Source of the DNA: Phycisphaerae bacterium
GTDB lineage: Bacteria; Planctomycetota; Phycisphaerae; UBA1845
Assembly: GCA_029260015.1 (NCBI GenBank)
Contig: JAJDEB010000034.1
Coordinates: 146,031 to 210,030, forward strand
DNA length: 64,000 nt
Reading direction: 5' to 3'
Of the stretch, positions 48,245 to 64,000 are shown one piece after another; position 1 is the first letter of the stretch, and each line of letters begins with the position of its first letter. Under the pieces are notes generated by a model. It worked only from the letters and a program-made list of their open reading frames with translations. It was not told the origin of the DNA and made no database searches. The position numbers and the translations under genes are program-made.

Positions 48245-51106
48245 CTATCCCGTAAATGCAGCTTGCATCGCCGCGAAGTCGACAAGATCAATCTCGCTAT
48301 TGCTATCCGCGTCGAAGCAATCGCAAGGCGTTCCGCTCGAAGGCACCGACGGTCCAAGCAGGCAGTTGACGAATTCTGCCAGGTCGGCTTCGTCAACGTC
48401 ACCATCGACATCGTGGTCGCCGCTACCCGGTACACAACTGGCCACCGTACACTGCACTTCAAAAATCTCAAAGTCGTCAACACCGGCTTCGACGACCGAC
48501 TGCGTTCCGACATCTTCTGCGGTGAATCGGATGCGGAATTGATTGGTCACAGGAATCGCGTAGGCCTTTTCAAACCAGCCCCCACTGATCTGTGGATTCT
48601 CATCGGCGGTCGTCGGTCCGACGGTTTCCAATTCCGTCCAACTGCCCCCACCGTTGTCGGAAATCTCAACGATGAATCGATCTGTTCCCGGACCACCACC
48701 CGTATCATTTGAGAACCATCGGGCGTAACGAACTTGCGGAGCGCTAAATGCGGACGTATCAAACACGGGCGAAGTGAGCGTCACCGAGCCGTCGTCCACG
48801 TCACTGTTGCAACCGTTGGCGGCGCTGTTGTCTGTCAACCAGCACTGACCGGAACCATCAGAATCGGACGGCGGATCGCCGCGATCACAATCCACGGGTG
48901 TACCACGAGTCCAGGGGCCGTCACCAGATGCGTCGGTCGTCGTCCAACCGTTGTCGCTTTCAAAGTTGTCGGCGACTTGGGTGACAAGTTCCGTTGCTAC
49001 CAATGCAGAATAAGTGTCGCCCGGTGCAGCAACGGGATCCTGAACGTCGCCGCAGGTGGCTGAAGTGGAGATGAAATACTCAATCGTCTCACCGCAATCG
49101 GCGGCTGGCAGTTGGGCCTCATACGCGTCGCCACCGATCGAGGTCAAAGGCGATACACTAAACGGTCCGGATGTTCCGACTCGAAAGTTAAGGTTTGCAG
49201 AAACCGGATCGTCAGATGTGATGGTTAACGGTAGCGTTGTCGTCTGATTCGGATCCACCAAGGCGGGCCGACCAGTTGGGTAATCGATCGTCACGACATC
49301 AAACGCCGGACAGTCCATATTGTGGGCACCGAATCCAGCGCAGATCTCTGCACAATGCGGCGTGCCGTTGGATATGTCGGCATCATCGTCATCCAGCGTC
49401 AAGTAATCAATCGTGATCTGTGGCGTGATGCTTGAGCCACTGTGAAGCGGCATGCTGTTGATCGCCAGTTGTGCAATGATCTCGCGATAAGTGCCAGGAT
49501 TCGTTGCGAGCAGTTCGTTTCGCACACTCCAAACGCAACCGGAAATGAGCGTTCCGCAGAAGTGAACTTCACCGCTGCATGGATATTGCATGGTGTTGTC
49601 GGCGTCACGAAGCGGTTCACCGCAGTCGCCGAAGAATCCATAACCCGTTCCTGAGACATCCTGGATCACCATCGAAACAACGTCACCCATGCCCTCACCA
49701 TATTGGCCCTGACCGCTACCCGCGACCTGAACCAGGTGGTGACCGTATTCATGATAAATCACGCTATTCCAAGACGTATTCGGTCGCCCTCCGCCAGCCG
49801 CACAAAACCTTAGGTTATTGCCTTGATATTGGGCATTGCCTGGGCAGAAACCGTTGGCACCTTCATTGACGGTAATGCTGTAACCCGTTTGACCGCCAAT
49901 CACCGGATATGCCGGATTGATGTTCAGCACGAAATCGCGTACGTCGTTGGCATAAAAGTACGCGTTGACTTCACCCCGACTGTACTCATCATTAACGGCG
50001 TTGAATTCGAAGTTGACTGGCCCGGGCGGCGTGACCAATGACGACAGCGTTGATTCATCACCATCGAGCGAACTGTCACCATTGTAGGTGAACACTTCAA
50101 AGAATTCGCCGCGAACGGCTGAGTCTACTGTGACGTTTGAGCTGCCACCGTTGGGAATCGTGAAGTCGCCGTTGATGTCTGCAAAGGCGTCCGTGCCACC
50201 AATGCTAGCAATGTTATACGGCATCGGTGTCAGCACTTCGGCTTCACATTGTTCTGAACCAATGCCTTCTGTGACAAATCCGCTCACGTTTCCGTTGACG
50301 TCGATTTCGAGAATCTGGTTTTCTTTGAAAAGAATTTTTCCGGATTCAAGGTCGGTGACGAATAGCCATTTTGAATCGATGCCGTCAGCCGCTGGCATAT
50401 TGTCGGCGATAAATGTCAGCGCCAATCTCGGCGTCGCTTCCACTTCGTCATACCCCGCCCAGATCACCGGCTTGGCCACGGTAAAGTTGACAAACGTGTT
50501 GTCGAAGTTTTGAGCAGCTTGCCGTGCCAGCGTGAATCGTCCTGCCTTGTACGTCGCGTCACCCAATCGGTTTCTAGTCTCATTTGTGACGGTGAACGCC
50601 CCCAGGTCCTTCACTGCGGAAGCGGCATTCACCAGCGGGAAGTCATCTTCGTTGCGGACAAGAAGCTTTAGATCGCCTCGAAAAACGGGAACGTCGTTTT
50701 GAACTTGACGATAGTGGACGAGCGTGAATTTGTAGGTGCCCGTCTGCGGATCGTACATCAGCGGCTGAGCGTGTTCGGCGCCCTCAATTCTATTCTGCGG
50801 GAGAAGGTCAGCTGGTGAAGTTCCCAACACGCGAGCGTTGGCAAAGCGAAAGCGTTCGGCTGAATCTACCGCTGAGGTGCCGATCGAAAACGCCTGACCA
50901 TAAATTTTTCGAACGTCTCGATTCTGTTTGATGATGACGGCTTTGGGGTTTTCTCGTACGAACTGCGCTTCCGCGTCGGCGCGAAGCTTTTGAAGTTGCT
51001 GCACATTTGGCGCAATTCCATCAGGACTATCCTGCGCCATTGATTGCGTCGGAACACCAAGGGGCAATGCAAGTACAGCTACGATCAAACAATTTGAAAG
51101 CTTCAC
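48245..51106 (-). CDS. Secreted gluzincin-type metalloprotease (HExxH) with Ig-like, MAM-like and dockerin-like C-terminal domains
   Basis: The signal peptide is MKLSNCLIVAVLALPLGVPTQSMAQ. The zinc site reads VIYHEYGHHLV...GQYGEGMGDVVS. The MAM-like block reads FESDNGWTT...IVEISDNGGGSWTELE. Confidence 0.75.
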   Translation of the reverse strand: MKLSNCLIVAVLALPLGVPTQSMAQDSPDGIAPNVQQLQKLRADAEAQFVRENPKAVIIKQNRDVRKIYGQAFSIGTSAVDSAERFRFANARVLGTSPADLLPQNRIEGAEHAQPLMYDPQTGTYKFTLVHYRQVQNDVPVFRGDLKLLVRNEDDFPLVNAASAVKDLGAFTVTNETRNRLGDATYKAGRFTLARQAAQNFDNTFVNFTVAKPVIWAGYDEVEATPRLALTFIADNMPAADGIDSKWLFVTDLESGKILFKENQILEIDVNGNVSGFVTEGIGSEQCEAEVLTPMPYNIASIGGTDAFADINGDFTIPNGGSSNVTVDSAVRGEFFEVFTYNGDSSLDGDESTLSSLVTPPGPVNFEFNAVNDEYSRGEVNAYFYANDVRDFVLNINPAYPVIGGQTGYSITVNEGANGFCPGNAQYQGNNLRFCAAGGGRPNTSWNSVIYHEYGHHLVQVAGSGQGQYGEGMGDVVSMVIQDVSGTGYGFFGDCGEPLRDADNTMQYPCSGEVHFCGTLISGCVWSVRNELLATNPGTYREIIAQLAINSMPLHSGSSITPQITIDYLTLDDDDADISNGTPHCAEICAGFGAHNMDCPAFDVVTIDYPTGRPALVDPNQTTTLPLTITSDDPVSANLNFRVGTSGPFSVSPLTSIGGDAYEAQLPAADCGETIEYFISTSATCGDVQDPVAAPGDTYSALVATELVTQVADNFESDNGWTTTDASGDGPWTRGTPVDCDRGDPPSDSDGSGQCWLTDNSAANGCNSDVDDGSVTLTSPVFDTSAFSAPQVRYARWFSNDTGGGPGTDRFIVEISDNGGGSWTELETVGPTTADENPQISGGWFEKAYAIPVTNQFRIRFTAEDVGTQSVVEAGVDDFEIFEVQCTVASCVPGSGDHDVDGDVDEADLAEFVNCLLGPSVPSSGTPCDCFDADSNSEIDLVDFAAMQAAFTG
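48248..48421 (-). other. Dockerin-like paired EF-hand/Cys module (C-terminal)
   Basis: GDHDVDGDVDEADLAEFVNCLLGPSVPSSGTPCDCFDADSNSEIDLVDFAAMQAAFTG. Confidence 0.65.
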
Positions 51107-51438
51107 GCGTTCACTCCTCCGGAAGATTGCCAGGATCTGGTATGACAGAACTTGGCTTGAATGCGACGCCTATGTACACGCCGCCCACCACACACACTCA
51201 AAGTTCACGATGGTCACACCCCTGCGAGCCAATCGCAAACACTTTCCCCATTTTGTACGAACCAAGAACAACGGCTTAACATTCGGGAATATGCTAAAGC
51301 GTAAGTGAATGACCGGCGCGATTCAACGTGTGTCCGTACTATGTCGCTTGCATGCCCTGGGTGTGTCGGTGCAAGCAGAACCATTCATCAAACTTATGCA
51401 ATTCGAAACGGTTCCGTCCGAATATCATTTGCAAACTT

Positions 51439-52524
51439 TTATAGTCCGCGTTGGGTCAACAAGTAGACTGCAAAGCTTCCCAACCAATGTCCGCCTTCAT
51501 AATGCTCGCCTGTCACCGACGCAACACCGGCTTCTCGATGGCCTGCGGCGCACGCTCGAACGATCGGTACGCGCTTATCTTCCTTTGGCAGCCCAGATGC
51601 GATGCCTTCCAACATCCACGCTCGGGAAATATTCAATCCGTCCAGATGCACAAGGTGTCCGTCGGTCTTGTCGGAAACTATCGCCGGTCTGAGCCAATCC
51701 GGTTGACTCTTGGCATTTAATTCCGGAAGGAAACGACCTAGCCAATCGCTGAAAGTTGCTGGCTTTAAGACGCGACGCATGAGATCCGCTTCGGCAATGA
51801 TAGGTGACAAAAACGCTTGCCCGTCAGGTTCGAACGCGAGGTTGGCCACCCGATCGGCCAGATAGAAATCCTTCACTCGCCGTGTGACCAGCGATTCCAT
51901 ATCCGTATCACCCGTGGATCGCGCCCAATCCAGCACCAACCCCAACGCGAATGCAGTTTGACTGTGCTCGCCGGTTCGCACCGGGTGCGAAAGTTTCGGC
52001 AGCCACGTTTTGAGGCGACTTGCTGCTTCTTTCTCCAACGGTTCCAGAATATCGGCCCACTCTTGTGATTTCGGATGATCCCATTCGTGAAGTTCTGCCG
52101 CCAACTGCAAAAACCACGCGAGGCCATACGGGCGCTCAAACGTACCTCGCCCTTTCGTCTTCATGTACGCCAATTCAGCCGCCACCTTTTCAGCGGTGAA
52201 ACTCTGATCGAGCGCGGTCATGGCATCGCGAACGAACGGCGCACCCGGCTGAGTTCTGCAAAGTCGCACCAGCAGCCAGTGTCCATGCACGGCTGAATGC
52301 CAATCAAAACAACCGTAAAACACCGGCGTCAATTCGCGTGGCGTCTTGGCGTCTTCCGGTGAAGACATGACGTGGGAAATCTTGTTGGGAAATTCTCGAT
52401 GGACACAGTCGAGGGCAAGTCGCGCGAATCTATCCGCCGATCGGGCATCAACAGATGGATTGCTTTCGGCAATCGCTAAAACGGGAAAAACAAACGCAGC
52501 TATTGCAAGCGCACGCCAACCCAT
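51439..52524 (-). CDS. DUF2891-like secreted protein (alpha/alpha toroid-like)
   Basis: The signal peptide is MGWRALAIAAFVFPVLAIA. The block FYGCFDWHSAVHGHWLL matches my recollection of the DUF2891 family. Confidence 0.55.
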   Translation of the reverse strand: MGWRALAIAAFVFPVLAIAESNPSVDARSADRFARLALDCVHREFPNKISHVMSSPEDAKTPRELTPVFYGCFDWHSAVHGHWLLVRLCRTQPGAPFVRDAMTALDQSFTAEKVAAELAYMKTKGRGTFERPYGLAWFLQLAAELHEWDHPKSQEWADILEPLEKEAASRLKTWLPKLSHPVRTGEHSQTAFALGLVLDWARSTGDTDMESLVTRRVKDFYLADRVANLAFEPDGQAFLSPIIAEADLMRRVLKPATFSDWLGRFLPELNAKSQPDWLRPAIVSDKTDGHLVHLDGLNISRAWMLEGIASGLPKEDKRVPIVRACAAGHREAGVASVTGEHYEGGHWLGSFAVYLLTQRGL

Positions 52525-52568
52525 GGCGATCCTCCTTGATCAATGTAGTGATGTCTGTGCTTGATACC

Positions 52569-54809
52569 TTACGGTCCGAGCAATCCCGATTCCCATGCTG
52601 CGTAATCCTCACCGTCAATGTCGCCGTCGAGATCAATGTCGGCAGCGGTACACGCGTTTGATTCCAATGGGCCATAGAGCGCCGGGAAACACGTACACGA
52701 ACCTGCACCAGTGAAGCATTGCTGCATGAGGGCAAAATCCTCAAGATCAACGTTTCCATCGTCTGTCAAATCCGGATCCTGCGGGTCGCACTCTGCCTGC
52801 GTGACCAGCACATCGTCAATCGCGACTTCAACAATGTCGCCAGAGACGGGCCCGTCGGTGGCCATAAACCGCAAGCGCATCTGACTGGTCGGAACAACAA
52901 AATCGCTGACCATGAATTGCACGAGTTCCCAACCGCCACCGCCCGGCGAAAGGGATTCGATGGTTGTCCACGATGATCCATCGTTGTTCGAGATTTCGGC
53001 GATGTACCCGTCATCACCTCCGAGGTCGCGTTCGTAGAACCAACGATAGTACGAAACCTGCGCGTCTTCAGTTCCAAGATCAAACGACGGAGAGGTCAAG
53101 ATGACTGTTCCGCTATCCACATCTTCCGAGCCTTGCGCTCCGGTTGGGTTGGTCGCTGTATACATACAATTACCCGCTCCGGTTGGCGTGTGATCATTTT
53201 CGGGTTGGGCCCCCGTGCCAACTGGATCGCCGCGAACAAACGTGCCCGTTGTTGCCGAGTCGGGACCGGTGGCCCAACCTTCATCGGTGTCAAAGTCGTC
53301 GGCGAATACGATATTGATTGTGTCGGCGACGGTTGCAGTGTAGACGTTTGCAGGCGCGTCACCGGGGTCGGTCACCGTCAAGCCCGCTTCGGTCTCGGCG
53401 CTGAAATAGTATGCAATTTCCTGTCCGCACAACGCGGGCGGAAGAGACGTCAAGTATTGTTCGGGGCCATTGGAAGTCATCGGAACTGCGACGAAGCCAC
53501 CACCCAAGTCATAATGGAGCATTCCAGTGTTGGGTTTGTGGACGCCATTGCATCGCCCCGTCAGGCTCATTGAGATATCCGTAGAACTCGCCGGTGCGAG
53601 TGAATCGGGTAGCGCTGATGCATATTCAAAATCAAGCACGCCCAGCAGATCACTGGCAGCCAATGCGTCGCTGACATCCAGCACGAATAGTCCGCGGTCG
53701 ATGTCGCTGATGATCACCGATCCACTCGGAAAGAATGGGTAGTTGTTCCACGCCCCATCAAAGTTGACGGAATCATTTTCTGGATGGGTGTCATAGAATC
53801 CAACTTCAACCGGTGCGAGCGGGTTCGCAATATTCACGACCCTAAGACCCGAACTGTAATTGGCTTGGAACATCACGCATTCGTCGATGTAAAGATTGTG
53901 ATCGCGTGATTGTAGACCCGTTGTGAATGTTCCCGTGAGTACCGGATTGGACAGGTCTTCAATATTAAAGATCAGCGTGCGGGTCGTCGGGACTCCAGGA
54001 TCACCTTCATCCAATTCATCATTGGCGTACAGATACTTGCGATCCGGCGTCGTCCAACCCTGATGGCAATAATCAACACCCGGATACGGTGTTCGCGACA
54101 TGAGGAACATGTTACTTTTGTCGGTCACATCAACGATATCCACACCGCGTCCTTCACTGAAACCAAAAAGGATTTCTCTACCGGCATATGGACCCGACGT
54201 ATAATTGACGATGTGGGCATCGTGATGATATGCAGACGAAGGTTCGGTCCAGCGACCGGCTTCTGGTGGATTGACGGGGTTAATATTTAAGTCATACGCC
54301 ACCGGCGCTCCTCCGTTGATGGTGGCCCCCGCCAGATACAGGAATCCGCTGTCCGTATTGATCGCAACATTGTGGCTGTCCGATACACCGCTCGTCGTAA
54401 ACCGCGTTACCAGTGTCACGTTGCCGTTGTCAACATCACTCAGATCGATCACATCAACACCGCCGCCTGTTTCGTTGACGACATAGGCGTAATCGCCAAA
54501 TGTCTTGACGTCACACCAATCACTCGTCGAGTGGCCGACCGATCCAATGATGACGGGATTTACCGGGTCGGTAATTTCCACAACGATGAGCTTCGTGGTC
54601 ACACCCATCAGTGCGTATTCGCGACCGGATGAAGAAACGTAACCCCAACTGTCACAACCGGCACCCGCTGTCAGATCGGTCAAGTCCAGCCACGACTGCT
54701 GTGTGACGTTAAGGCTTTGGAATTGAGCAATCGCGCTGCTTTGAGACATCAAACACGTCAGCATGACAACGATTGCAGGTAATTTTCGCATTGCGAGATA
54801 ACGATGCAT
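52569..54809 (-). CDS. Secreted LVIVD-repeat (choice-of-anchor-B-like) beta-propeller protein with Ig-like, MAM-like and dockerin-like C-terminal domains
   Basis: There is a signal peptide. LVIVD-type repeats include LIVVEITDPVNPV, VDVIDLSDVDNG, VDIVDVTDKSN, LRVVNIANPLAPV and LFVLDVSDA. The MAM-like block reads FDTDEGWAT...IAEISNNDGSSWTTIE. Confidence 0.7.
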   Translation of the reverse strand: MHRYLAMRKLPAIVVMLTCLMSQSSAIAQFQSLNVTQQSWLDLTDLTAGAGCDSWGYVSSSGREYALMGVTTKLIVVEITDPVNPVIIGSVGHSTSDWCDVKTFGDYAYVVNETGGGVDVIDLSDVDNGNVTLVTRFTTSGVSDSHNVAINTDSGFLYLAGATINGGAPVAYDLNINPVNPPEAGRWTEPSSAYHHDAHIVNYTSGPYAGREILFGFSEGRGVDIVDVTDKSNMFLMSRTPYPGVDYCHQGWTTPDRKYLYANDELDEGDPGVPTTRTLIFNIEDLSNPVLTGTFTTGLQSRDHNLYIDECVMFQANYSSGLRVVNIANPLAPVEVGFYDTHPENDSVNFDGAWNNYPFFPSGSVIISDIDRGLFVLDVSDALAASDLLGVLDFEYASALPDSLAPASSTDISMSLTGRCNGVHKPNTGMLHYDLGGGFVAVPMTSNGPEQYLTSLPPALCGQEIAYYFSAETEAGLTVTDPGDAPANVYTATVADTINIVFADDFDTDEGWATGPDSATTGTFVRGDPVGTGAQPENDHTPTGAGNCMYTATNPTGAQGSEDVDSGTVILTSPSFDLGTEDAQVSYYRWFYERDLGGDDGYIAEISNNDGSSWTTIESLSPGGGGWELVQFMVSDFVVPTSQMRLRFMATDGPVSGDIVEVAIDDVLVTQAECDPQDPDLTDDGNVDLEDFALMQQCFTGAGSCTCFPALYGPLESNACTAADIDLDGDIDGEDYAAWESGLLGP
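52572..52778 (-). other. Dockerin-like paired EF-hand/Cys module (C-terminal)
   Basis: DPDLTDDGNVDLEDFALMQQCFTGAGSCTCFPALYGPLESNACTAADIDLDGDIDGEDYAAWESGLLGP. Confidence 0.65.
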
Positions 54810-55065
54810 TCAATGAACCCTTCTTGGATGAACTGTATTGATTCAGGTGCCAACCGATACGATGTTTCCGGTGGCGATAACCGACTGACCAGCTGAATAT
54901 TTCTGAACGGAACTTGCGTTACAGAATCGTGAGTATACCACCGATGCGGTCACGCCTTCAAACTTTCAAATGATGTAGGATTTGCGTCTGAAGTGTGTAC
55001 ACCTTGACTGGTTTGTCGGTTGATCCGTATGATCAACGATTGCAGCACTGCGTCGACAATACTCA

Positions 55066-56283
55066 ATGAATAAAGAATTCAAATCATCGCAAGCGCGGAT
55101 TCACATCGTTCCGATAAGTTGCTTTGTCGTCGCTTTGACGATGGCAACGAACATCGGGTCGGCGCATTTTTTTGTGGAGCAGCGCGATCGGGTTGGCCCG
55201 TCGCCGCAGGTTTTGGGCAACGGTTGGCTTGCAGAGGTGTATTTGGATATCCCGGACGCGTCGGCGGTCGCCCTGCTGAACGCAGAGATCTTCATCGCTG
55301 ATCGCACGCCTGATTTTACTTTTCGCACGACCTATATCGATTTCCCTGCCGGCCCCAGCGACGGGAAGCTTGACACCGAATTTGCAACCATCGGAGACTT
55401 TTTCGATGATTATGTATTTGACGTTTCGGACCCTGGCAAACTCGACGAACCGTTCGGCAATTTCGTGATTCGATTTAGCGGATTGCTGAATGTCCAACTG
55501 CGCGACAGTTCGTTTGAGCAATATGGCTTGCCCCTCTTAATTGACTTTGCAACGCAGGCACACGGCGGATACCGCACGCGAATCGGAACGACATCCATCT
55601 ATCGCGTTCAGAACTCTGCGTTCGTTGGCTCGCCATTTATGACTGAAAATGCGGTGCTTCTGGGCCTTGGCTTGTTTCCCATTCAAGTCACCTACCTGCA
55701 ACAATTCGATCCGACGAACGCTTTGGGAAATGAGTTAGCCGGTGTGGAGCTTTACAGTTGGCACCCTAACGGGCTGCCCTGGCCCGCAGGCGCAGCGATG
55801 AATGATCCGCGTTTCGGCGACATGACGGTTACCAGCCCCAATGTCATTTATCAACCCGGTCAGATTCCAATGCCGACCAAGTGCGATTACAACGGCGATT
55901 CGCGGTGTGACCTTCTCGATATGCAAGTACTGCAACTTTGCTTTGGCGGCGATGGTGTTGATATCCTCGCAAATGGCGGCGACCCGTTGTGCCTAGTCTT
56001 CGACTTTGATGACGATGGCGATGTGGATGAAAGCGACGGCCAACTGTGCGCATTGACTGCCGCCGGACCGGACAAGTTTCCGTATCTCAAAGGTGATTAC
56101 ACGACGAATCTGTCGATTGATCTCGAAGACTTCCAGTGGATGCAGAATTGCTTTTCGATCGGTGGCGAAGATGAACGAGGTTCGCTGCCAACCGGCTGCG
56201 AATGGATGGATTTTGACGGTAACCAGTCGATCAATTTAATCGACTACGGTTATTTTTTAAACGCGATGTCTCAGTCGCCGTGA
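55066..56283 (+). CDS. Secreted protein with a PA14-like N-terminal domain and two tandem dockerin-like modules
   Basis: The N-terminus is hydrophobic. The PA14-like pattern is FTFRTTYIDF...FVIRFSGLLNV...GGYRTRIG. The C-terminal 133 aa form two complete paired-loop modules. Confidence 0.55.
   Translation: MNKEFKSSQARIHIVPISCFVVALTMATNIGSAHFFVEQRDRVGPSPQVLGNGWLAEVYLDIPDASAVALLNAEIFIADRTPDFTFRTTYIDFPAGPSDGKLDTEFATIGDFFDDYVFDVSDPGKLDEPFGNFVIRFSGLLNVQLRDSSFEQYGLPLLIDFATQAHGGYRTRIGTTSIYRVQNSAFVGSPFMTENAVLLGLGLFPIQVTYLQQFDPTNALGNELAGVELYSWHPNGLPWPAGAAMNDPRFGDMTVTSPNVIYQPGQIPMPTKCDYNGDSRCDLLDMQVLQLCFGGDGVDILANGGDPLCLVFDFDDDGDVDESDGQLCALTAAGPDKFPYLKGDYTTNLSIDLEDFQWMQNCFSIGGEDERGSLPTGCEWMDFDGNQSINLIDYGYFLNAMSQSP
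55882..56280 (+). other. Two tandem dockerin-like paired EF-hand/Cys modules
   Basis: CDYNGDSRCDLLDMQVLQLCFGG...CLVFDFDDDGDVDESD and DYTTNLSIDLEDFQWMQNCF...CEWMDFDGNQSINLIDYGYFLNAM. Confidence 0.6.
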
Positions 56284-56472
56284 CCGCTGCACCAGTAGAA
56301 TGCGGTTTCGTATTTATTGGACGAGGATTCAATGGGGTTGTCAGGCTCGCCGACGACCGGATACAATTCAAACACTGGCGATGTTGTCCGTGTGCCGGTT
56401 AGAGAGAATCAGCGAGAGAGTTTCCGAGAGCGTCGTATCTCGGTTGGATTCATCAAGGGGAGAGGAAAGAGA

Positions 56473-57342
56473 ATGTCCATTTCACTTAGTCGATATCGTT
56501 GTGCCATTGCTGCGGTCGGGATATCGCTCGTCAGCCTTCCGGTGGTTGATTCAACTGCCGGGCCCGTCTTTAATCCACAGCCCGTTGGTTCAAGCACGAT
56601 GTCGATCGCATACGAAACCAACGCGGGCCCGGTCGAGTTCTCCGGGTTGCGTACCCATAGTGGCACCGGCTTGAGCGATATCAGCAACCTGGGCGGTGCC
56701 CCGAATGTGGGCGCATTCAGTGCGAACAACACGCTTGGTCGCCGCCCTGCATCGGCCCAAGGCGCAGACGAAACACTCATGCGTCACGGTTTCTACAAAT
56801 ACGACAGCAGTGGACTCAATATTGCGGACGACTTCTTCCCGGACATGGCCCCCGGAAGCGACATTACCATCGCGATCAACAACATTGAGTTCGATCGGCC
56901 GGTGCAGGTCCAAACCGATACCGCGCTGTTGCACATTCTTTGGAATATTGATCAGGTGGACTCGCTTGGTTTAAACGCTCAAAACCTGCCTCGGGCTTAT
57001 CTGTATGGAAACAACCACCACACAGTGGCAGACTTTCGCGACGTTCCGGACTTTCTAAATGAGAACGTTTTCCATGATAACCCAGTCCCCAACTACAACC
57101 TCGGCGACATCGAACCGGTATTCACACAATCGCAGCCCAACACAATCAGCGTCAGTTTGACCTTTCCCTATGAAATCTTTCGGCACCTGGAAGACGATGG
57201 GCTGGGCGTCCCGAATGGACTGCCGGGACCGGCAGGCTTTCTCGAGCCCTTTCATTTGCATCTGGAATACCTTGTCGTGCCCGAACCGTCCGCCGGTATG
57301 CTGTTGGCCATCGGTGCAATCGCTCTGATCAGGCGGAAGTGA
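56473..57342 (+). CDS. PEP-CTERM sorting-domain protein (function unknown)
   Basis: The C-terminus LVVPEPSAGMLLAIGAIALIRRK gives a PEP motif, a TM helix and a basic tail. I moved the start to the ATG at 56473 (MSISLSRYRCAIAAVGISLVSLPVV), which is preceded by GGAGAGGAAAG. Confidence 0.8.
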   Translation: MSISLSRYRCAIAAVGISLVSLPVVDSTAGPVFNPQPVGSSTMSIAYETNAGPVEFSGLRTHSGTGLSDISNLGGAPNVGAFSANNTLGRRPASAQGADETLMRHGFYKYDSSGLNIADDFFPDMAPGSDITIAINNIEFDRPVQVQTDTALLHILWNIDQVDSLGLNAQNLPRAYLYGNNHHTVADFRDVPDFLNENVFHDNPVPNYNLGDIEPVFTQSQPNTISVSLTFPYEIFRHLEDDGLGVPNGLPGPAGFLEPFHLHLEYLVVPEPSAGMLLAIGAIALIRRK

Positions 57343-57421
57343 TCCGAAATTAAAACAAATAAAATACGCGCCCCTAATCATGGGTTCCCGGAAAAGGTGC
57401 CGCACTTCACTGACCTGTCTT

Positions 57422-60259
57422 TTAGGGTCCAGCGATCACCCGCACATTGTCAATGATGCCAAAGCTCAGCGCTGCATTGTCTGAAATGGATGTAAACACA
57501 TCCATGTAGCCGATCGCAATGTTACCGCCAAGCGACACTGAACTCCCGGAATTGGCATCAATGGTTGCGATTGCCAATCCATCGATCCGCCACGTTGCCG
57601 ACCCGCCGACCTCATCGACCATGACTTCAAACTGATGCCACGCAAATCCGGCGCTACCGGCGGCGGTTGTTCCAGTCTGTTGCGCATGATTCGCCGTTTG
57701 CGTTGCTGGGGCTAATTTCGGAGAAAAGAATCCGCTCAGCGTGGCGTCCGTATTATCGTTCGACGCGACTTCGTATTGCCCGCTCGCAATCGATTGCTCG
57801 GCGGCATCTTTATAAGCGCGGAAATCTCGCGATGAACCGCCTTCGCCATCGGCTGCAAACCATGCGCCGCCACCCGACACATCGCCGAGGTTCGCCGTGC
57901 CCCCGTCCGACCCAACACCACCGGTGACGAACTCCGTCGAACCCGTACCACCGGATGGGAACGGTCCATTCGCGTTGATCCACATGTCAAACGCAAGTGT
58001 ATATTGACCTGAGAACGACTGACCAACTGGAGATAAAGTGATGGCTTCGATTGCGCCAGGTGAGACCATGTTCGCTTCAAACTTTACGCCAAGGGTAGTT
58101 GAACCAACCGAGTTCGGAGCAGACGGTATTCCATCAACGCTATAGTCGTAGGCGAAAACGACCGATGTATCTGGCCCGGTGGCGTTGATGTTCCAGTTGG
58201 CTGACGAGTCCACATCGAAATCATCACTAAAGAGAATCGCCATCGAAACGCAATTAGTTATATCTGTGTCCGGACCGTTAAGACACTGCATGAACACATC
58301 GTAGTCATTCGCATCGATGTCGTCGTCGCCGTCGCGATCGAAGCATGTACACAATGGTTCATCGTACGGCCCCCCGCCGCTGCCGGTCGAGCAATGCTGT
58401 ATCAGCGCAAAATCGCGCAGGTCAACACGGGCGTCACCGTTCATATCGCCGGCTGGCTGATTGCAACCCGACATGTACGCGACCTCATCCATCGCGCCTC
58501 GGAGAATCCACGTATCGGGATCGAGCTGAACATCAACAGCGGTTTGCGGCGTATCGATGATAAACCATTGCAATTCGCGATCGTTCTTAATGACGAATGT
58601 GTCTGTGCTCGTGTCGGCGTATTCGACGACCACATCGATCGGCATTTCAAAATCTGGAAACGATGACTGGAATTGTTCAACGTGCAGCAGGACACGATTT
58701 TGATTCCCGGCGAAGTCCGCTTGCCAACCGAATCGGTAGTAAGGCGCTCCGCCTTGATAAACCCATTGGTCAAAAAACCAGTCCATCGCCCGGCCCGAAA
58801 CCGATTCAACAATAAACTGAAAGTCGGCAGTGGTTGCAGAACTGTCTTCATAAGTCTGTCGATATTCGGCGAGCACATCGTAGAAAACGTCATCACCAAG
58901 AACGTGGCGCAGCATGTGCATTACCCACGATCCCTTGTTGTATACGTTTGTACCGCTGAAAATCTGCCCCGATGTGCTTATGTCATAGCGATAAACCGTT
59001 CCGCCAAAGCTGCTGGGGCGATACGCCATCATGTGTGACAAATACGCCGCGTGACTCCCGCCCGGTTTGCGTTCGTGCCACAACGATTCGGCGTAGCGGG
59101 CAAAGCCCTCGTTCAGCCAGATGTCGTGCCAAGTCGCGCAGGTGATCGCGTCGCCCCACCACATGTGCGCGAGTTCGTGGACGGTGCGCCGCTCGGGAAA
59201 CGATCCCTGACTGGTGATCGTTTGATGTTCCATCCCGCAGCAACCTTCAAACTGGGCGATGCCGTATTTTTCTTCTAGGAACGGATACTCGCCGAAACAG
59301 TCCGGATCGCTGAACGTTTCGATCATGCTGACGACATCGACAAGCAACGGTTGAACCGTGCTGACATCTTCCGGATAAATATAGAATTCAACCGGCATCA
59401 AGCCCGAACTGTGTACATAGTATTCTGTCCAGTGCGAGTAATTAGTCGCCGCGATCGAAACCAGATAAACCGAAATCGGAAAAGTCTCAGCCCACCGATA
59501 GCGGGCGCGACTACCCGACAGCGTATCGACGCCGTCGAACCGACCATTAGACGCAACCGTCATCCAATCCGGACTCGTCACCCACATGTCCATCGTGAAT
59601 TTGTCGTCGATCGAATTCTTGCAGGGCCACCATGCCGGTGCGTTGAACGGTTGGCTATGCGTGGCGATGACGTCGACCGCGGGCGAGCCATGTGTGCCAG
59701 AATAACCCGCAGCCGCCGAAAGATGAAACGGCGCCCCACCATACTCAACACGAACAGCAAACGCATCATCCACATCAAACGATTGGCCAAGGTCGATTTC
59801 AATCTGATCATTCGCGTGGGTAAACAAGACCGGTGCACCATCAAGCCAAACACCACCGACAACCATCACGTCAAACAGGTCAAGGGTGATCGAAGTCAGA
59901 CCATCGGACTTGCTGACAATGTCCAGCGTATTCGATCCTGTCACAGAATTTGGATTGAGGCCCAGTTCGATATCAAGAAAGCAATGGACCACATCAATGT
60001 CAGCATCGCTACCGCGCAACATAGCTGCCGGCGGAAAATCCATCGCCCGCGAGGCATGCCCGCATAGATCATCCTTGCCTTCGTCATCGAGACCACATTG
60101 CTCAACTGGCTGCGGCGGTGCGGAGTCTGGACCAGCCCACGCCACCGCTCCAATCAGTAATGGCAAGATCGCAACATGTCTGAGGATCATTCCAAGATTC
60201 TCAATTCGCATCATGATTTCCGATGATCCATCCCCAAGCGCACCGACTGCAAACTTCAC
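57422..60259 (-). CDS. Secreted M1-family aminopeptidase fused to a dockerin-like module and a C-terminal LamG/concanavalin-like domain
   Basis: Motifs GMEHQ, HELAHMWWGD and WLNEGFARY (HExxH-x18-E) are present. The exact start is uncertain; MKFAVG..., MRIENLG... and MILRHVAILPLLIGAVAWA are all possible. Confidence 0.85.
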   Translation of the reverse strand: MKFAVGALGDGSSEIMMRIENLGMILRHVAILPLLIGAVAWAGPDSAPPQPVEQCGLDDEGKDDLCGHASRAMDFPPAAMLRGSDADIDVVHCFLDIELGLNPNSVTGSNTLDIVSKSDGLTSITLDLFDVMVVGGVWLDGAPVLFTHANDQIEIDLGQSFDVDDAFAVRVEYGGAPFHLSAAAGYSGTHGSPAVDVIATHSQPFNAPAWWPCKNSIDDKFTMDMWVTSPDWMTVASNGRFDGVDTLSGSRARYRWAETFPISVYLVSIAATNYSHWTEYYVHSSGLMPVEFYIYPEDVSTVQPLLVDVVSMIETFSDPDCFGEYPFLEEKYGIAQFEGCCGMEHQTITSQGSFPERRTVHELAHMWWGDAITCATWHDIWLNEGFARYAESLWHERKPGGSHAAYLSHMMAYRPSSFGGTVYRYDISTSGQIFSGTNVYNKGSWVMHMLRHVLGDDVFYDVLAEYRQTYEDSSATTADFQFIVESVSGRAMDWFFDQWVYQGGAPYYRFGWQADFAGNQNRVLLHVEQFQSSFPDFEMPIDVVVEYADTSTDTFVIKNDRELQWFIIDTPQTAVDVQLDPDTWILRGAMDEVAYMSGCNQPAGDMNGDARVDLRDFALIQHCSTGSGGGPYDEPLCTCFDRDGDDDIDANDYDVFMQCLNGPDTDITNCVSMAILFSDDFDVDSSANWNINATGPDTSVVFAYDYSVDGIPSAPNSVGSTTLGVKFEANMVSPGAIEAITLSPVGQSFSGQYTLAFDMWINANGPFPSGGTGSTEFVTGGVGSDGGTANLGDVSGGGAWFAADGEGGSSRDFRAYKDAAEQSIASGQYEVASNDNTDATLSGFFSPKLAPATQTANHAQQTGTTAAGSAGFAWHQFEVMVDEVGGSATWRIDGLAIATIDANSGSSVSLGGNIAIGYMDVFTSISDNAALSFGIIDNVRVIAGP
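58271..58447 (-). other. Dockerin-like paired EF-hand/Cys module (internal)
   Basis: DMNGDARVDLRDFALIQHCSTGSGGGPYDEPLCTCFDRDGDDDIDANDYDVFMQCLNGP. Confidence 0.65.
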
Positions 60260-60487
60260 CCCGCCAGTTTACCCGAATACGCAATACCGGCTCAACAAGC
60301 GAATTGCCAAATCATCGGTCGAGAAATCGTCCCGATAATTTGTCCCGGTTTTGTCGTAGTAACTTACGCGACTTGGGCCGCAATGGTGATGCCGTCAAGA
60401 CCCAGGACAACTGCTTGAGCCGCCAAGTCAGACCCGACCTCACTTGATGGCAGAAATTTCCACGATAGTGTACCGGAGTTAATTGCC

Positions 60488-60835
60488 ATGAGAATCGGAT
60501 TGGACATAGACGGAACCATCACCCGCGCTCCGGAATTTTTCGCTTTCTTGTCAAAGGTGTTTATGGATGCTGGCCATCACGTTGCAGTCGTGACGCATCG
60601 AATGGACCGGAAATTAACGGAAGAAGAGTTGGCCGAATACGGTGTGCAATTTCACGAACTCATTCTACCCGAAAATTTTGATCACGAGATCGCCGAGTGG
60701 AAGATCGAAGCATTTGAAAAAATCAAGCCGGATATCGTTTTCGAGGACATGGTGGATGTCGTCAACGGATTGCCCAATTCAGTCGTGTCATTCGTTCCGT
60801 TGTCGCACAAACTCGGCCAACTTGAATACAAGTAG
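60488..60835 (+). CDS. Small HAD-superfamily-like protein
   Basis: The 115-aa protein has N-terminal motif I, MRIGLDIDGTIT. I did not recognise any other family signature. Confidence 0.45.
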   Translation: MRIGLDIDGTITRAPEFFAFLSKVFMDAGHHVAVVTHRMDRKLTEEELAEYGVQFHELILPENFDHEIAEWKIEAFEKIKPDIVFEDMVDVVNGLPNSVVSFVPLSHKLGQLEYK

Positions 60836-60883
60836 CGATCAATTCAGTTGCAACGCTTTACCCAATTTGTCACAGAGAAACCT

Positions 60884-62818
60884 ATGAATACCGCATCGAA
60901 CTTAGAGAACCTCGACGATGACAGTAGGTCCGAGCCTTTGGCAGTACCGAGGTCCGGTCGATTCTCGCCGTTTCGACTCATTGATTGGACGTCTCGGTGG
61001 TTGGTTGAACGACGGATGTCATGGATAGCTGCTGCGATCGGCGTCGTTCTCACCCTACCCGGATTGTGGCTCGGATGGCAGACTGACGACCATTTGCATC
61101 GGGCGACCTTGACTGATGAGTTCCCAGTGATGGCGGATGCACGTCGGCCGTTTTGGGACATGTTCGCGTTCGTTAAGGAAGGGACGCTTGAAGATGGTGC
61201 GGTCATCGATCGCGGCGAGTTGCCCTGGTGGACTCCGCCGAATTATAAGATCGCGTTCTTTCGACCGGTCGCTGGCATCACGCACTGGATTGATTACAAG
61301 CTTTGGCCGCAATCACCTTGGATCATGCACGCTCAATCCATCGGGTGGTACGGGCTGACGGTTTTCGTTGCCGCCCTATTGTTTCGCAGGCTTTCAATCA
61401 CGCCGATCGCCGCAGGACTCGCCGCCCTCATCTATGCAATAAGCGATGGACACGGCCTGCCCGCAGTCTGGTTGGCTAATCGCAATGCAACGGTGGCTGC
61501 TTGCTTCGGAATTTGCTCGATACTGGCGTACGACTGGTGGCGACGTGGCGGATCGAGGGCGGGCGCGGTACTTGCTCCCTTGGCCCTTTTGGCGGCGGTC
61601 CTAGCCAACGAAGGCGCGGTGGCAGCCGGTGCGTACTTGCTGGCATATGCTATATTCATTGACCCGGACCGAACGTGGAAACGATTTGGCGCACTGCTGC
61701 CCTGTGTTGTGATTGGCGTGGCTTGGTGGTTGGCGTATCGTGCAAACGGTTATGGCGTTGTTGGCTCGGGCGTTTACGTCGACCCGGCGAATGACCCGCT
61801 GGGATTTGTTAGTGCATTCATTCGACGCGCTCCAATCCTAATCTTTGGACTCTTTTGCGTACCGCCGTCCGACTTGCACATCATGCTTTCCGAAGCGGCA
61901 TATCGCATTTTCTGGATCGCAGGCCTTTGCCTGATTGTCTTCGGTGCAACGCAACTTGCACCACATCTCAAGTCGAATAAAACTTTACGCTTTGGGTTAA
62001 TGGGTATGTTGCTCTCAATCCTGCCACCCTGCGCCACTTTTGCTTCGGATCGATTGCTTATGTTTGCAGGGCTTGGGGCCGCTATTATCATCGGGCAACT
62101 CATCGCGTCGGCTTTGAATTCAACGGTCGCAAAGTCAGCAACTCAAACGTCCAGGATTGTTGGCGGCGGGCTGATTGTAATCCACTTGATCTTTGCACCG
62201 ATTGGTTTGTTGATGGCTGCCCACAATGTCCGCAACTTTGGGGAAACGTCAAACGTGGCTGGCTTGAGTCTGCCGCACGACGAGAAGGTCAAAGATCAAC
62301 GCATGATGGCCGTCAGCGCACCATCCGGTTTCTTGTTTGCCTTCGCCAAGATATATGCAGCCACCCAACATCGAACCGTATCGAATAAGACCTTGTCGCT
62401 GGGTTCCGGTGTGTTCGAGGTCCAAGTTGAACGTCCGGACGAGCAAACGTTACTCATCAAGCAAGCAGGTGGTTGGCTGGCCCATCCCGGATGCTCACCG
62501 GCAGATGATTTCGCATGGTTCGGCGGCCACTACTTGTTTCAAACATTCGATGTTTTATTCCGCGACAGCCAACCGTTTGAAGTCGGCCAACGCATCGAGT
62601 TATCTGATTGCACGATTGAACTCGTTGAACTCACCCCGGACGCGCGACCCGCAAGAGTCCGGTTTGAATTCAAGAAACGACTAGAGGATGAATCCTATCG
62701 TTGGGTCTATTGGAAGGTTGACCGTTTCGCTGAATTCGATCTGCCTGCCGTCGGCGGATCAGTCACGTTACCCGCACCCCGGCCACCGATTGGATCGATG
62801 AATGGAAGCGACGGGTAA
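60884..62818 (+). CDS. Polytopic membrane protein, GT-C (PMT/TMTC/DUF1736-like) candidate
   Basis: There are about 12 hydrophobic segments. The first loop carries FFRPVAGITHWIDYKLW, reminiscent of the FRP...H motif of PMT_2/TMTC-type GT-C enzymes, and a soluble C-terminal domain follows. I chose the ATG at 60884 over the TTG at 60848. Confidence 0.45.
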   Translation: MNTASNLENLDDDSRSEPLAVPRSGRFSPFRLIDWTSRWLVERRMSWIAAAIGVVLTLPGLWLGWQTDDHLHRATLTDEFPVMADARRPFWDMFAFVKEGTLEDGAVIDRGELPWWTPPNYKIAFFRPVAGITHWIDYKLWPQSPWIMHAQSIGWYGLTVFVAALLFRRLSITPIAAGLAALIYAISDGHGLPAVWLANRNATVAACFGICSILAYDWWRRGGSRAGAVLAPLALLAAVLANEGAVAAGAYLLAYAIFIDPDRTWKRFGALLPCVVIGVAWWLAYRANGYGVVGSGVYVDPANDPLGFVSAFIRRAPILIFGLFCVPPSDLHIMLSEAAYRIFWIAGLCLIVFGATQLAPHLKSNKTLRFGLMGMLLSILPPCATFASDRLLMFAGLGAAIIIGQLIASALNSTVAKSATQTSRIVGGGLIVIHLIFAPIGLLMAAHNVRNFGETSNVAGLSLPHDEKVKDQRMMAVSAPSGFLFAFAKIYAATQHRTVSNKTLSLGSGVFEVQVERPDEQTLLIKQAGGWLAHPGCSPADDFAWFGGHYLFQTFDVLFRDSQPFEVGQRIELSDCTIELVELTPDARPARVRFEFKKRLEDESYRWVYWKVDRFAEFDLPAVGGSVTLPAPRPPIGSMNGSDG

Positions 62819-62857
62819 CGTGACCGTTTGCCCTGAGTAAATTGAATAGGACTGAAG

Positions 62858-64000
62858 CTACTTTAGTACCGTCACATGACCGCGGTGCGTTTGCTTTCTA
62901 CCTCCGCCATGACCTCTAAGAGGGCCGCCGCTTGAATCGCCGCCGGCCGTCAATCCGTACTTCAAGACTGTGACGTGTCCGTGACCGCCACCAGCGGTCA
63001 TTCCAAATTTCAAAACCGTGACGTGTCCATGCCCACCGGTACAATCGCTACGCCCGCAGCGAGAACATTTCTTGCCGGCTATACTCATGCTCGGACCGGT
63101 GCCCACACCACCTCCGCCGCCAGCGACCCCGCTTAGCTTCCAAGTTCGTGGCCCGCAGCCAGGTGTCGATCGACAATCGCCTTTGCACGCCACACAATAA
63201 ACGCACTTGCCTCCGCAATCGTCACGGCCGCAGTTCTTGCAGGTTCTTGCGACAGGACTCGATCCACCAGTACCACCTCCACCGGATGCGATGCCACCAT
63301 TGGTGTTGTTTGAACGCGACGAGTTGTATCCTACGCCGGTTGTACTTTCGGCTCCTTTTAGCACAGTGACATGCCCACGATGACGGACGCTGTTGGCAGT
63401 GGGCGGTAACTCGTTCGGACATGAATCTACCGATGACACACATGTTCCATCCGGACACGGATAAGGTGTTTCCATCGGACAACCCGAACCACCGCCCGGA
63501 GCCGCGTTCACCTTTTTGGAAAGGTCTGCGCCAGCTTTGAACTTCACTACGTTCTTCGCTGCGATCTTGATTTCCTTGCCCGTTTGAGGATTGCGACCAG
63601 TGCGCGCGGCCCGTTTTGAGATCGAAAATGAGCCAAAACCGACCAGGCTAATCTTGTCTCCCTTCTTGAGACTGGCACCATCTTTCGCCATCGCGTCGAT
63701 GAGTTCAGCTTTATTCATCAGTCCGAACGGATCGGAATGCGTCCAAGGATTGTTACCGCCATAGGTGTACGCATTGCCATTATTCAAGCTGTCAGCCCAC
63801 GCTCCCAACGGGTCGCGGGAGATGAACCTGCCGGAAATCGGATCGTGGTAGCGATTGCGGTTGTAGTAGAGGCCCGTCGCATCATCGTAGCGTCGCCCCG
63901 TGAATAGATATGGATTCTCGACCAGCGATGTCGGGATCGATACGCCCGCAGCATCAAAAACTTCCGGCTGACCGTAGTCCTGATATTCGTAGCGCTCGAC
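62858..64000 (-). CDS. 3' end of an Rhs/YD-repeat protein: the Rhs-associated core plus a novel variable C-terminal tip. The 5' end lies beyond the window.
   Basis: The reverse frame is open from 64000 and reads [19 protein letters not shown]...[67 protein letters not shown] 286-aa tip follows. The track start at 63808 is only the first in-frame TTG, which encodes Leu of DPLG. Confidence 0.85.
62939..63034 (-). repeat. Tandem 48-nt (16-aa) coding repeat GHGHVTVLK(F/Y)G(M/L)TAGG, two units, inside the Rhs tip
   Basis: I read the units at 62987-63034 and 62939-62986. The peptide is nearly identical between units while many codons differ. Confidence 0.85.
63509..63718 (-). other. HU/IHF-like DNA-binding segment fused in frame directly after the Rhs DPFGL motif
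   Basis: [71 protein letters not shown] matches the HU beta-arm consensus GFG.F....RAAR.GRNP.TGE.I.I.A...V.FK.G. It lacks about 20 residues of helix 2. Confidence 0.7.

Follow-up and report, generated by a model that had tools for sequence, protein, structure and literature searches.

A conserved Rhs protein of a Phycisphaerae bacterium with a helix-2-deleted HU domain as its predicted cargo

What does an Rhs container carry when the segment behind its self-cleavage motif resembles a nucleoid protein? This question was raised by one gene of a Phycisphaerae bacterium (Planctomycetota, UBA1845; assembly GCA_029260015.1). We analysed a stretch of 64,000 nucleotides, the window, which corresponds to positions 146,031 to 210,030 of contig JAJDEB010000034.1, and coordinates are given in window numbering. 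The minus strand was open for 381 codons from 64000 to a TAG stop at 62858-62860. The initial annotation had read in this frame a canonical Rhs core ending in DPFGL, followed at once by an HU domain lacking about 20 residues, within a tip of 286 amino acids. The core, the deletion and the length were all borne out. The best reading of the results was that the gene encodes a Sec-exported, self-cleaving Rhs container with a conserved non-enzymatic cargo in a marine-type Phycisphaerae bacterium, where export and cleavage are predicted from the sequence.

The gene passed the window edge at 64000. It was completed with contig L091 of an independent Logan assembly, which was reached via the neighbouring membrane-protein gene and was 100% identical to window 50884-64000 over 13,117 nucleotides. 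The complete protein had 1902 amino acids (window-equivalent 62858-68566). The originally annotated interval of 63509-64000 covered the core and the HU part, but the feature extended to 62858 on one side and to window-equivalent 68566 on the other. The order of the protein was a signal peptide, a Cys- and Asp-rich segment, DUF6531, RHS repeats, the core, the HU part and a tail. The signal peptide was of Sec type as judged by eye (MDSPF...LAQSAAA/AS). In the full gene from L091, DUF6531 was matched with an E-value of 1.7e-15 and included ADSVYLFSGE, which resembled the N-terminal Rhs cleavage motif. The RHS repeat family PF05593 was matched in six stretches (E 7.7e-48), and the window held only the last part of the shell. 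The NCBIfam model of the Rhs-associated core, TIGR03696, was matched over its whole length (1-76 of 76) at amino acids 6-94 of the window fragment (E 5.6e-18). The match ended exactly at DPFGL (amino acids 90-94), and Met95 (63716-63718) came next. Two DPxG(L) motifs are the autocleavage signature of Rhs and TcC proteins, and the cut is made after the second motif, which supplies the catalytic Asp (PMC8636562). Both motifs were present here, and release of the tip by autoproteolysis is predicted from them together with that precedent. The Rhs body itself belongs to a known family and is ordinary within it; its cargo and context are out of the ordinary. The parts of the core and of the HU domain were as follows.

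63719-64000, minus strand: end of the Rhs shell and Rhs-associated core, fragment amino acids 1-94 (TIGR03696; PF05593 and DUF6531 in L091)
63803-63814, minus strand: DPLG, the first DPxG motif of the aspartyl-protease plug, amino acids 63-66 (sequence)
63719-63733, minus strand: DPFGL, the second motif, with predicted self-cleavage after Leu and cargo start at Met95 (sequence; PMC8636562)
63662-63718, minus strand: HU N-terminal piece, helix 1 (residues 1 to about 15) with the LKK that normally ends helix 2 (hup alignment; helix in the AlphaFold2 model)
63506-63661, minus strand: HU C-terminal half, with the beta-sheet, the DNA-clasping beta-arm and helix 3 (PF00216; predicted local distance difference test score (pLDDT) 82-94; Foldseek)

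The HU identity of the tip was examined with profiles, alignments and a structure model. The Pfam model PF00216 (Bac_DNA_binding) matched amino acids 110-165 at profile positions 35-90 of 90, with an E-value of 9.5e-21 and a score exceeding the gathering score. The absence of a significant HU match, which the initial annotation had named as telling against it, was therefore not found. Models of HU-alpha, HU-beta and IHF also matched the tip, and the PDB sequence matches were all HU or IHF (best E 1.7e-22). The model of the HU-HIG clade, PF18291, gave 14.2-14.7 bits, under its cut-off of 26.2. The tip was then aligned with 77 ordinary 90-amino-acid hup genes in the residue numbering of established HU structures. 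It comprised HU residues 1-15 and then about 35-90. The 19 residues in between (about 16-34), which form helix 2, were absent, so that the complete succession of helix 1, helix 2, sheet with arm, and helix 3 was not present. The arm residues R55, R58 and R61 and the intercalating P63 were kept residue for residue with ordinary HU, and the core residues F47, F50 and F79 were retained. The HU C-terminal half was 71-92% identical (median 83%) to the 77 hup genes, almost all of which were from Bacteroidota, and the N-terminus of the tip was identical to that of flavobacterial HU. AlphaFold2 was run on the tip as a monomer with an alignment of 32 sequences. The model showed a helix at tip residues 3-12, then the HU sheet and arm, and a helix at 64-72. 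The fold over tip residues 1-72 was HU-like, with pLDDT means of 64-94 in blocks of ten residues. Every significant Foldseek match of the model was HU or IHF, with a probability of 1.0.

The age and integrity of the fusion were assessed with an orthologue on contig L087 (NPIG01000016.1, 231 kb), which was found by a metagenome scan with the tail. Its Rhs protein of about 1940 amino acids was 59% identical over 1915 residues. The L087 tip started after DPLGL and shared the junction, the helix-2 deletion and the Cys unit with the window protein. Amino-acid identity was 70% in the Rhs core and 48% in the tail, where the ratio of nonsynonymous to synonymous substitution (dN/dS) was about 0.13-0.23. 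In the HU C-terminal half (52 codons), identity was 96%. The proportion of synonymous differences (pS) was 0.66 and that of nonsynonymous differences (pN) was 0.054, giving a dN/dS of about 0.035. When a window of 50 residues was slid along the whole protein, the HU C-terminal half had the highest identity at 0.96, followed by 0.78 for the next segment, compared to 0.61 overall. Since synonymous sites were near saturation, the fusion and the deletion were old and did not result from a recent capture. These values indicated that both are under strong purifying selection. The suggestion in the initial annotation of a captured hup gene does not hold as a recent event. The break or chimera at the junction that the annotation had considered was likewise not observed, and the identical second assembly, the conserved orthologue and the low dN/dS together largely excluded that the fusion is a chimera, a separate hup gene with a frameshift or a remnant in decay.

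The HU part was followed by a tail of 215 residues. It was basic and rich in Gly, Cys and His, with 24% Gly and 7% Cys. The tip as a whole was strongly basic, with 39 Lys and Arg, 16 Asp and Glu, and 9 His. In the AlphaFold2 model, a small confident Cys unit was found at about tip residues 80-100 (pLDDT 84-90), and disorder was predicted from tip residue 105 to the end. The tail contained the following elements, for which L087 and P0040, another Rhs-linked protein described below, served as references.

63419-63481, minus strand: single Cys-rich unit, a small knot, resembling the repeat units of proteins P0121 and P0122 (E 4.6e-7) and kept in L087
63356-63376, minus strand: GHVTVLK copy 1, at the same place in L087
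63308-63328, minus strand: YNSSRSN, single copy, 9 residues past GHVTVLK copy 1, with the same spacing in L087
63155-63241, minus strand: Cys cluster, predicted disordered, without a family match (sequence)
63041-63067, minus strand: second CxxCGRxDC unit, CSRCGRSDC, aligned with CGRCGAMLCRC of L087 and P0040
62939-63034, minus strand: two tandem 16-amino-acid units GHGHVTVLK[FY]G[ML]TAGG, a 48-nucleotide direct repeat, 77% identical, with synonymous codon differences
63008-63028 and 62960-62980, minus strand: GHVTVLK copies 2 and 3 (sequence)
62858-62881, minus strand: GHVTVLK copy 4 at the extreme C-terminus (motif 62861-62881) and the stop; L087 ends likewise in HRGHVTILK

All four GHVTVLK copies were preceded by HR or GH. 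The copies shared only 14-18 of 21 nucleotides, which meant that selection acts on the peptide and not on the DNA. The L087 tail had the same order, with DYNSSRSNN nine residues past the first motif, more HRGHVT[VI]LK copies, and HRGHVTILK directly before the stop. A Pfam search up to an E-value of 10 with the tails of the window protein and L087 gave no real family match, and no enzyme or toxin family of Pfam or NCBIfam was found in the tip. An exhaustive HMMER search of the tail against 1.84 billion cluster representatives gave two weak matches only, and in each it was the Cys unit that matched. Such tips are probably hidden behind their Rhs bodies by the clustering at 50% identity.

We looked for other Rhs proteins with this cargo. 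In a GTDB genome scan with the 380-amino-acid fragment, in which the choice of peptide patterns introduced a bias, ordinary hup genes dominated the output, and no other Rhs-HU fusion was returned. The 12 loci that were inspected were all ordinary hup genes, and 77 of 80 gave a hup-type HU C-terminal half. Among 5.8 billion clustered proteins, two further Rhs-linked proteins with the HU C-terminal half were found, P0040 and P0001. P0040 was the last of three open reading frames (ORFs) from a split Rhs gene on a contig with 3x coverage, and its DPxGL was lost. It contained a degenerate HU C-terminal half, Cys- and Gly-rich stretches, CPGCGAMLCRCKD, which was also present in L087, and HGHVTVYK. 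P0001 (loci L002-L005) was an orphan tip with a degenerate core and was found on five contigs from four samples. Its DPFGL was directly followed by residues 2-38 of EF-Tu, the mature N-terminus (PF00009 1-32, E 4.8e-8; EF-Tu in PDB, E about 1e-12). This piece was joined at ALKKGD to the HU C-terminal half (E 1.2e-21), and a VgrG fragment came next (PF05954 122-148, E 2.6e-7). Another tip, P0010 (L006), contained VgrG residues 333-394 (E 1.9e-11). The unit that recurred across tips was the HU C-terminal half from [AS]LKKGD onward, and the sequence before it varied. These tips were thus mosaics, pieced together from fragments smaller than a domain. N-terminal peptides of GroES, RRM and SucC seen by eye in P0001 and P0010 were too short for statistical support, and only EF-Tu, HU and VgrG were significant. 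In the Rhs-related fragments P0123, P0124 and P0149, WGDPHENLNGK and a tyrosine-kinase-like I/PVRWMAPE stood before the GHVTVLK repeats.

The tail motifs were followed into other proteins with a tail profile, and 173 proteins were fetched in all. HRGHVTVLK and [AT]QD[YH]NSSRSN[KN] recurred unchanged in unrelated settings. GHVTVLK, NSSRSN or both were present in 43 exported proteins among the 173, and 30 of these 43 held both. One setting was a planctomycete PEP-CTERM family of about 270 amino acids, with P0168 of Aeoliella sp. SH292 and P0143, P0147, P0150, P0151, P0154, P0156, P0158-P0161, P0164, P0167, P0169, P0171 and P0173. In a 17-member alignment of this family, the sole contiguous invariant runs were GHVTVLK (7 columns) and the RSN of D-x-N-x-x-R-S-N, and the two motifs made up 12 of the 25 invariant columns. 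Its AlphaFold2 model was all-beta (predicted template modelling score 0.69) and had no significant PDB match, and an Hcp-like identity of the family was not supported. P0155 and P0162 (L092) gave weak gp19 tail-tube, Hcp (Pfam E about 1e-3 to 5e-3) and CarboxypepD_reg fragments. RGHVTVLK was the C-terminus of P0138, P0140, P0155 and P0162. In P0172, a signal peptide was followed by the N-terminal half of Hcp (PF05638 1-82, E 2e-21), and the C-terminal half was replaced by GHVTVLK and NSSRSN. The Rhs fragments P0123 and P0149 had 4-5 GHVTVLK copies and a terminal DHNSSRSNKTSS. Small signal-peptide proteins were built from 2-4 NSSRSN units. P0142 and P0166 had a signal peptide, HU at both ends, 4-5 motif copies and an HExxHVxQQ resembling the motif of the eCIS core (eCIS, extracellular contractile injection system). 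No contractile injection system genes were found beside P0162 or P0142. The first Asn of the NSSRSN motif was always within an N-x-S/T sequon. By full-text literature search, neither GHVTVLK nor NSSRSN was found in any paper.

The HU half also closed other exported proteins. These were 22 haloarchaeal Tat-signal proteins bearing two HU domains, and a gammaproteobacterial protein beside the isc operon; the gammaproteobacterial examples were Sec-signalled. The haloarchaeal tandem-HU proteins (among P0002-P0070, e.g. P0003, P0011 and P0021) had about 240 amino acids, a Tat signal and a conserved ALDLIPG.GDERR linker. These proteins appear to be dedicated HU paralogues that are exported. Haloarchaea are not known to use HU as a chromatin protein. 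In addition, the 477-amino-acid P0116 (L089/L090 608-2041) was encoded on a eukaryotic contig next to SF3B3/RSE1-like and MINDY deubiquitinase genes. Its order was a signal peptide, the HU N-terminal part, DYNSSRSN, a MopE-like Cys motif, GHVTVLK and the HU C-terminal part. The protein is possibly an HU that is targeted to plastids and carries a large insertion (PMC5499826).

The neighbourhood of the gene was inspected with L091 for the parts beyond the edge. Two neighbouring genes were located as follows.

60884-62818, plus strand: convergent gene for a 644-amino-acid membrane protein without a Pfam hit, ending 39 nucleotides from the Rhs stop
Window-equivalent 68973-70799 (L091 18090-19916), same strand as Rhs (minus): B12-binding radical SAM gene, 407 nucleotides upstream of Rhs

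There was no room for a co-directional immunity gene because the convergent gene ended 39 nucleotides past the Rhs stop. Past the stop, a co-directional ORF was found neither in the window nor in L087, nor at the loci of P0001. A convergent NtrC-type regulator lay downstream of the L087 Rhs gene, and a convergent cobW/MobB-like gene lay downstream at the P0001 loci. An immunity gene usually accompanies an Rhs toxin gene, and the majority of these toxin genes are located in contexts of type VI secretion systems (T6SS) (PMC8636562). The window gene departed from this rule twice, since it had neither an immunity gene nor a T6SS context. Extension of the contig, which the initial annotation had suggested for VgrG, PAAR or T6SS context, recovered the whole Rhs gene and none of these. 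Neither a PAAR or prePAAR N-terminus nor vgrG, hcp or eag neighbours, which mark T6SS effectors, were present; the N-terminus was signal-peptide-like and led into DUF6531. The upstream neighbours in L091 were the radical SAM gene and a pilin-like gene, and neither was conserved in L087. The window and L087 loci had no flanking gene in common, and their adjacent membrane proteins were unrelated (E 0.24). A maturation similar to that of ribosomally synthesised and post-translationally modified peptides was not supported, since the radical SAM gene was absent beside the L087 orthologue. No consensus terminator or promoter was found at the Rhs gene end. A perfect 13-nucleotide inverted repeat, GTCACGTTACCCG at 62762-62774 and CGGGTAACGTGAC at 62812-62824 with a 37-nucleotide spacer, lay where the two convergent genes meet and was not a consensus terminator. 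Further along, window 48245-60259 was rich in large exported proteins: a 953-amino-acid dockerin protein (48245-51106), a protein that combined LVIVD, MAM and dockerin domains (52569-54809), a PEP-CTERM protein (56317-57342) and a 945-amino-acid M1 peptidase (57422-60259). The protein clusters of other window genes had members that were annotated as Phycisphaerae or Phycisphaerales.

The protein was compared with known systems. Like the Rhs polymorphic toxins, of which Rhs1/Tre23 of Photorhabdus laumondii is an example (PMC8636562), it had a YD/RHS shell, a two-DPxG aspartyl-protease core and a variable tip directly after DPxGL. The DUF6531-type N-terminal plug was shared with these toxins as well, and ADSVYLFSGE resembled D-[PS]-V-x-x-x-[ST]-G-E. 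Unlike those toxins, its tip was a truncated HU with a disordered motif tail and no enzyme domain, no immunity gene lay downstream, and a Sec signal peptide was present without PAAR, VgrG, Eag or a T6SS context. Gram-positive WapA, which is Sec-exported, and the TcB-TcC cocoons are similar in that export or delivery is T6SS-independent, with a YD shell around the cargo and release through autoproteolysis, a cleavage that is predicted here. However, WapA comes with an immunity gene and its tips are nucleases, and TcC needs the TcA translocator and carries enzyme cargo; neither of these partners was found here. The tip shared helix 1, the sheet, the R55/R58/R61/P63 arm and helix 3 with HU and IHF (DNABII, PF00216). 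In contrast to these stand-alone cytoplasmic dimers of 90 amino acids, it lacked helix 2, stood behind an exported shell of 1600 amino acids and carried the tail. Mycobacterial HupB/MDP1 consists of HU and a long basic low-complexity tail, and this tail adds DNA affinity. The window tip was similar in joining an HU module to a long basic disordered tail. However, its tail was Gly/Cys/His-rich with specific motifs and not of the PAKKA type, its HU body was incomplete, and the protein is predicted to be exported. In the HU part, the protein also resembled exported HU-bracketed proteins (haloarchaeal Tat tandem-HU; P0142, P0166, P0062 and P0007), which shared a near-invariant HU C-terminal half and an MNKAELI start right after the processing site. 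GHVTVLK motifs were present in P0142, P0166 and P0062, and P0007 had only a GHVNILR variant. Unlike the window protein, they had no Rhs shell, and most kept helix 2 in at least one copy.

The literature was also searched. Neither IHF nor histone-like or nucleoid proteins are mentioned in the 2012 survey of polymorphic toxins. For the HU superfamily, the 2017 survey (PMC5499826) is silent on Rhs, toxins and secretion except for plastid signal peptides. A broader full-text search gave no Rhs-HU report, and HU as the cargo of an Rhs protein or polymorphic toxin was not described in searchable papers. This agreed with the initial annotation, which had not recognised such a cargo from described polymorphic toxin families. 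It had not included the 215-residue motif tail, the missing immunity gene, or the HU part as one module of a mosaic tip.

Based on these results, a mechanism can be proposed for the container and its cargo. The Sec-type signal peptide would export the 1902-residue protein, and the shell would enclose the 286-residue tip. The aspartyl-protease plug would cut after DPFGL, and the cargo would then start with Met-Asn-Lys, the native HU N-terminus. Release would most likely occur into or onto another cell. There, DNA would be bound by the conserved beta-arm and the basic tail, and a partner would be engaged through the short motifs. Once released, the cargo would most likely act by stoichiometric DNA binding, although we hold this with somewhat less than even confidence. 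This activity was favoured because the arm was the most constrained part, the tail was basic like those of HU proteins whose tails bind DNA, and the immunity gene was missing. A non-enzymatic cargo fits because no co-directional ORF followed the stop at any of the three kinds of loci. The DNA-targeting effector proposed in the initial annotation is plausible in this respect, given the retained R55, R58, R61 and P63 and the basic tail. Several results weighed against this reading. No vgrG, hcp, PAAR, eag, T6SS, type VII secretion system or TcA-like gene was found within 10 kb, and delivery into another cell was unsupported because a translocation partner was missing over that distance. The missing immunity gene, unusual for Rhs toxins, is just as compatible with a non-toxic role. 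HU of the same type was carried by Tat- and Sec-exported proteins of extracellular appearance. The canonical DNA-bending dimer may not form because helix 2 contributes a large share of the dimer core in HU, and the AlphaFold2 model leaned on an alignment of complete HU proteins. Finally, the tail motifs are without known function and may be the real effector part.

The alternatives to release of a DNA-binding cargo differed in which of these features they took as central. In one, the Rhs shell would export or package a matrix or surface component that acts outside cells, by binding extracellular DNA or polymers or by releasing peptides as proposed for teneurins. Extracellular DNABII proteins stabilise extracellular DNA in biofilms. 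The Sec signal peptide, the lack of both an immunity gene and an injection machine nearby, the same HU type behind the Tat signals of the 22 haloarchaeal proteins and the gammaproteobacterial Sec signals, and the invariance of GHVTVLK and NSSRSN in planctomycete PEP-CTERM surface proteins were all consistent with such a role. However, encapsulation and a conserved autocleavage plug are characteristic of delivery systems, no route for the cargo out of the shell is evident outside a cell, and an HU that is truncated seems ill suited to bind DNA in a structural role. We regard this role as possible but unlikely. A subunit poison or mimic appeared slightly less probable still. Here, HU without helix 2 but with its sheet and arm would form dead heterodimers with the HU of the target; more widely, tips of this sort would bring in pieces of abundant oligomeric proteins, and these pieces would disturb their native counterparts. 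The closeness of the tip to Bacteroidota-type HU (median 83% in the C-terminal half) and its flavobacterial N-terminus pointed in this direction, as did the EF-Tu piece of P0001, joined to the HU C-terminal half at the same ALKKGD, and the VgrG fragment of P0010. The absent immunity gene would be explained if the homologues of the producer differ or stay unexposed. On the other hand, a perfectly conserved DNA-contacting arm is unneeded for a pure dimerisation poison, and we know of no precedent. That the HU is of a foreign type would rest on a comparison with the hup set of the pattern-biased scan.

The motifs themselves could be the active part, with HU as an accessory. GHVTVLK and D[YH]NSSRSN would then be paired tags for glycosylation (D-x-N-x-S/T), covalent cross-linking through Lys and Asn, or binding to a common receptor. 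Their joint presence in 30 of 43 motif-bearing proteins across unrelated architectures, their share of the invariant columns (12 of 25) and sole hold on contiguous invariant runs in the 17-member family, the fixed spacing of 9 residues in the window and L087, and the constant sequon were consistent with tags. This argument is one of pattern alone, for which no family, structure or paper was found, and the most constrained part was the HU C-terminal half and not the motifs. We consider it doubtful. An artefact or decay, in which the fusion came from an assembly chimera, a separate hup gene with a frameshift or a displaced tip in neutral decay, had some basis in that Rhs tips are recombination hot spots, P0001 was an orphan tip with a degenerate core, and P0040 was a split gene without DPxGL. 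However, the second assembly was identical over all 13,117 nucleotides, the frame was open over 1902 codons, and an orthologue with saturated synonymous sites shared the junction and the deletion, with dN/dS of 0.035 in the HU C-terminal half and below 0.25 in the tail. Such an origin is extremely improbable.

The release of a conserved, putatively DNA-binding cargo remained the preferred reading for this gene. The tip might in addition belong to an undescribed exported class of cassette mosaics, in which short near-invariant modules on Gly-rich linkers form arrays of mimics or of interaction or cross-linking tags, and not folded toxins. The modules would be the HU N-terminus, the HU C-terminal half, HxGHVTVLK, D[YH]NSSRSN, the eCIS-core HExxHVxQQ, and fragments of Hcp, the gp19-type tube, VgrG and the EF-Tu N-terminus. 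Their carriers would be Rhs tips, PEP-CTERM proteins, Sec- and Tat-exported proteins of bacteria and archaea, and the one protein from a eukaryotic contig. This class is proposed with low confidence. The pattern could be new in its own right; at present it is a collection of sequence findings that lacks a mechanism.

Rhs and other polymorphic toxins are regarded as carriers of toxin domains that are enzymes and have matching immunity proteins. Here, a conserved Rhs protein had a truncated nucleoid protein as its most constrained part. This would widen the known cargo range of YD shells to non-enzymatic cargo that binds DNA or acts as a mimic. It also ties Rhs tips to exported, HU-containing and motif-bearing proteins that are seemingly undescribed. 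Dedicated exported HU paralogues, if that is what these proteins are, bear on how DNABII proteins reach extracellular DNA.

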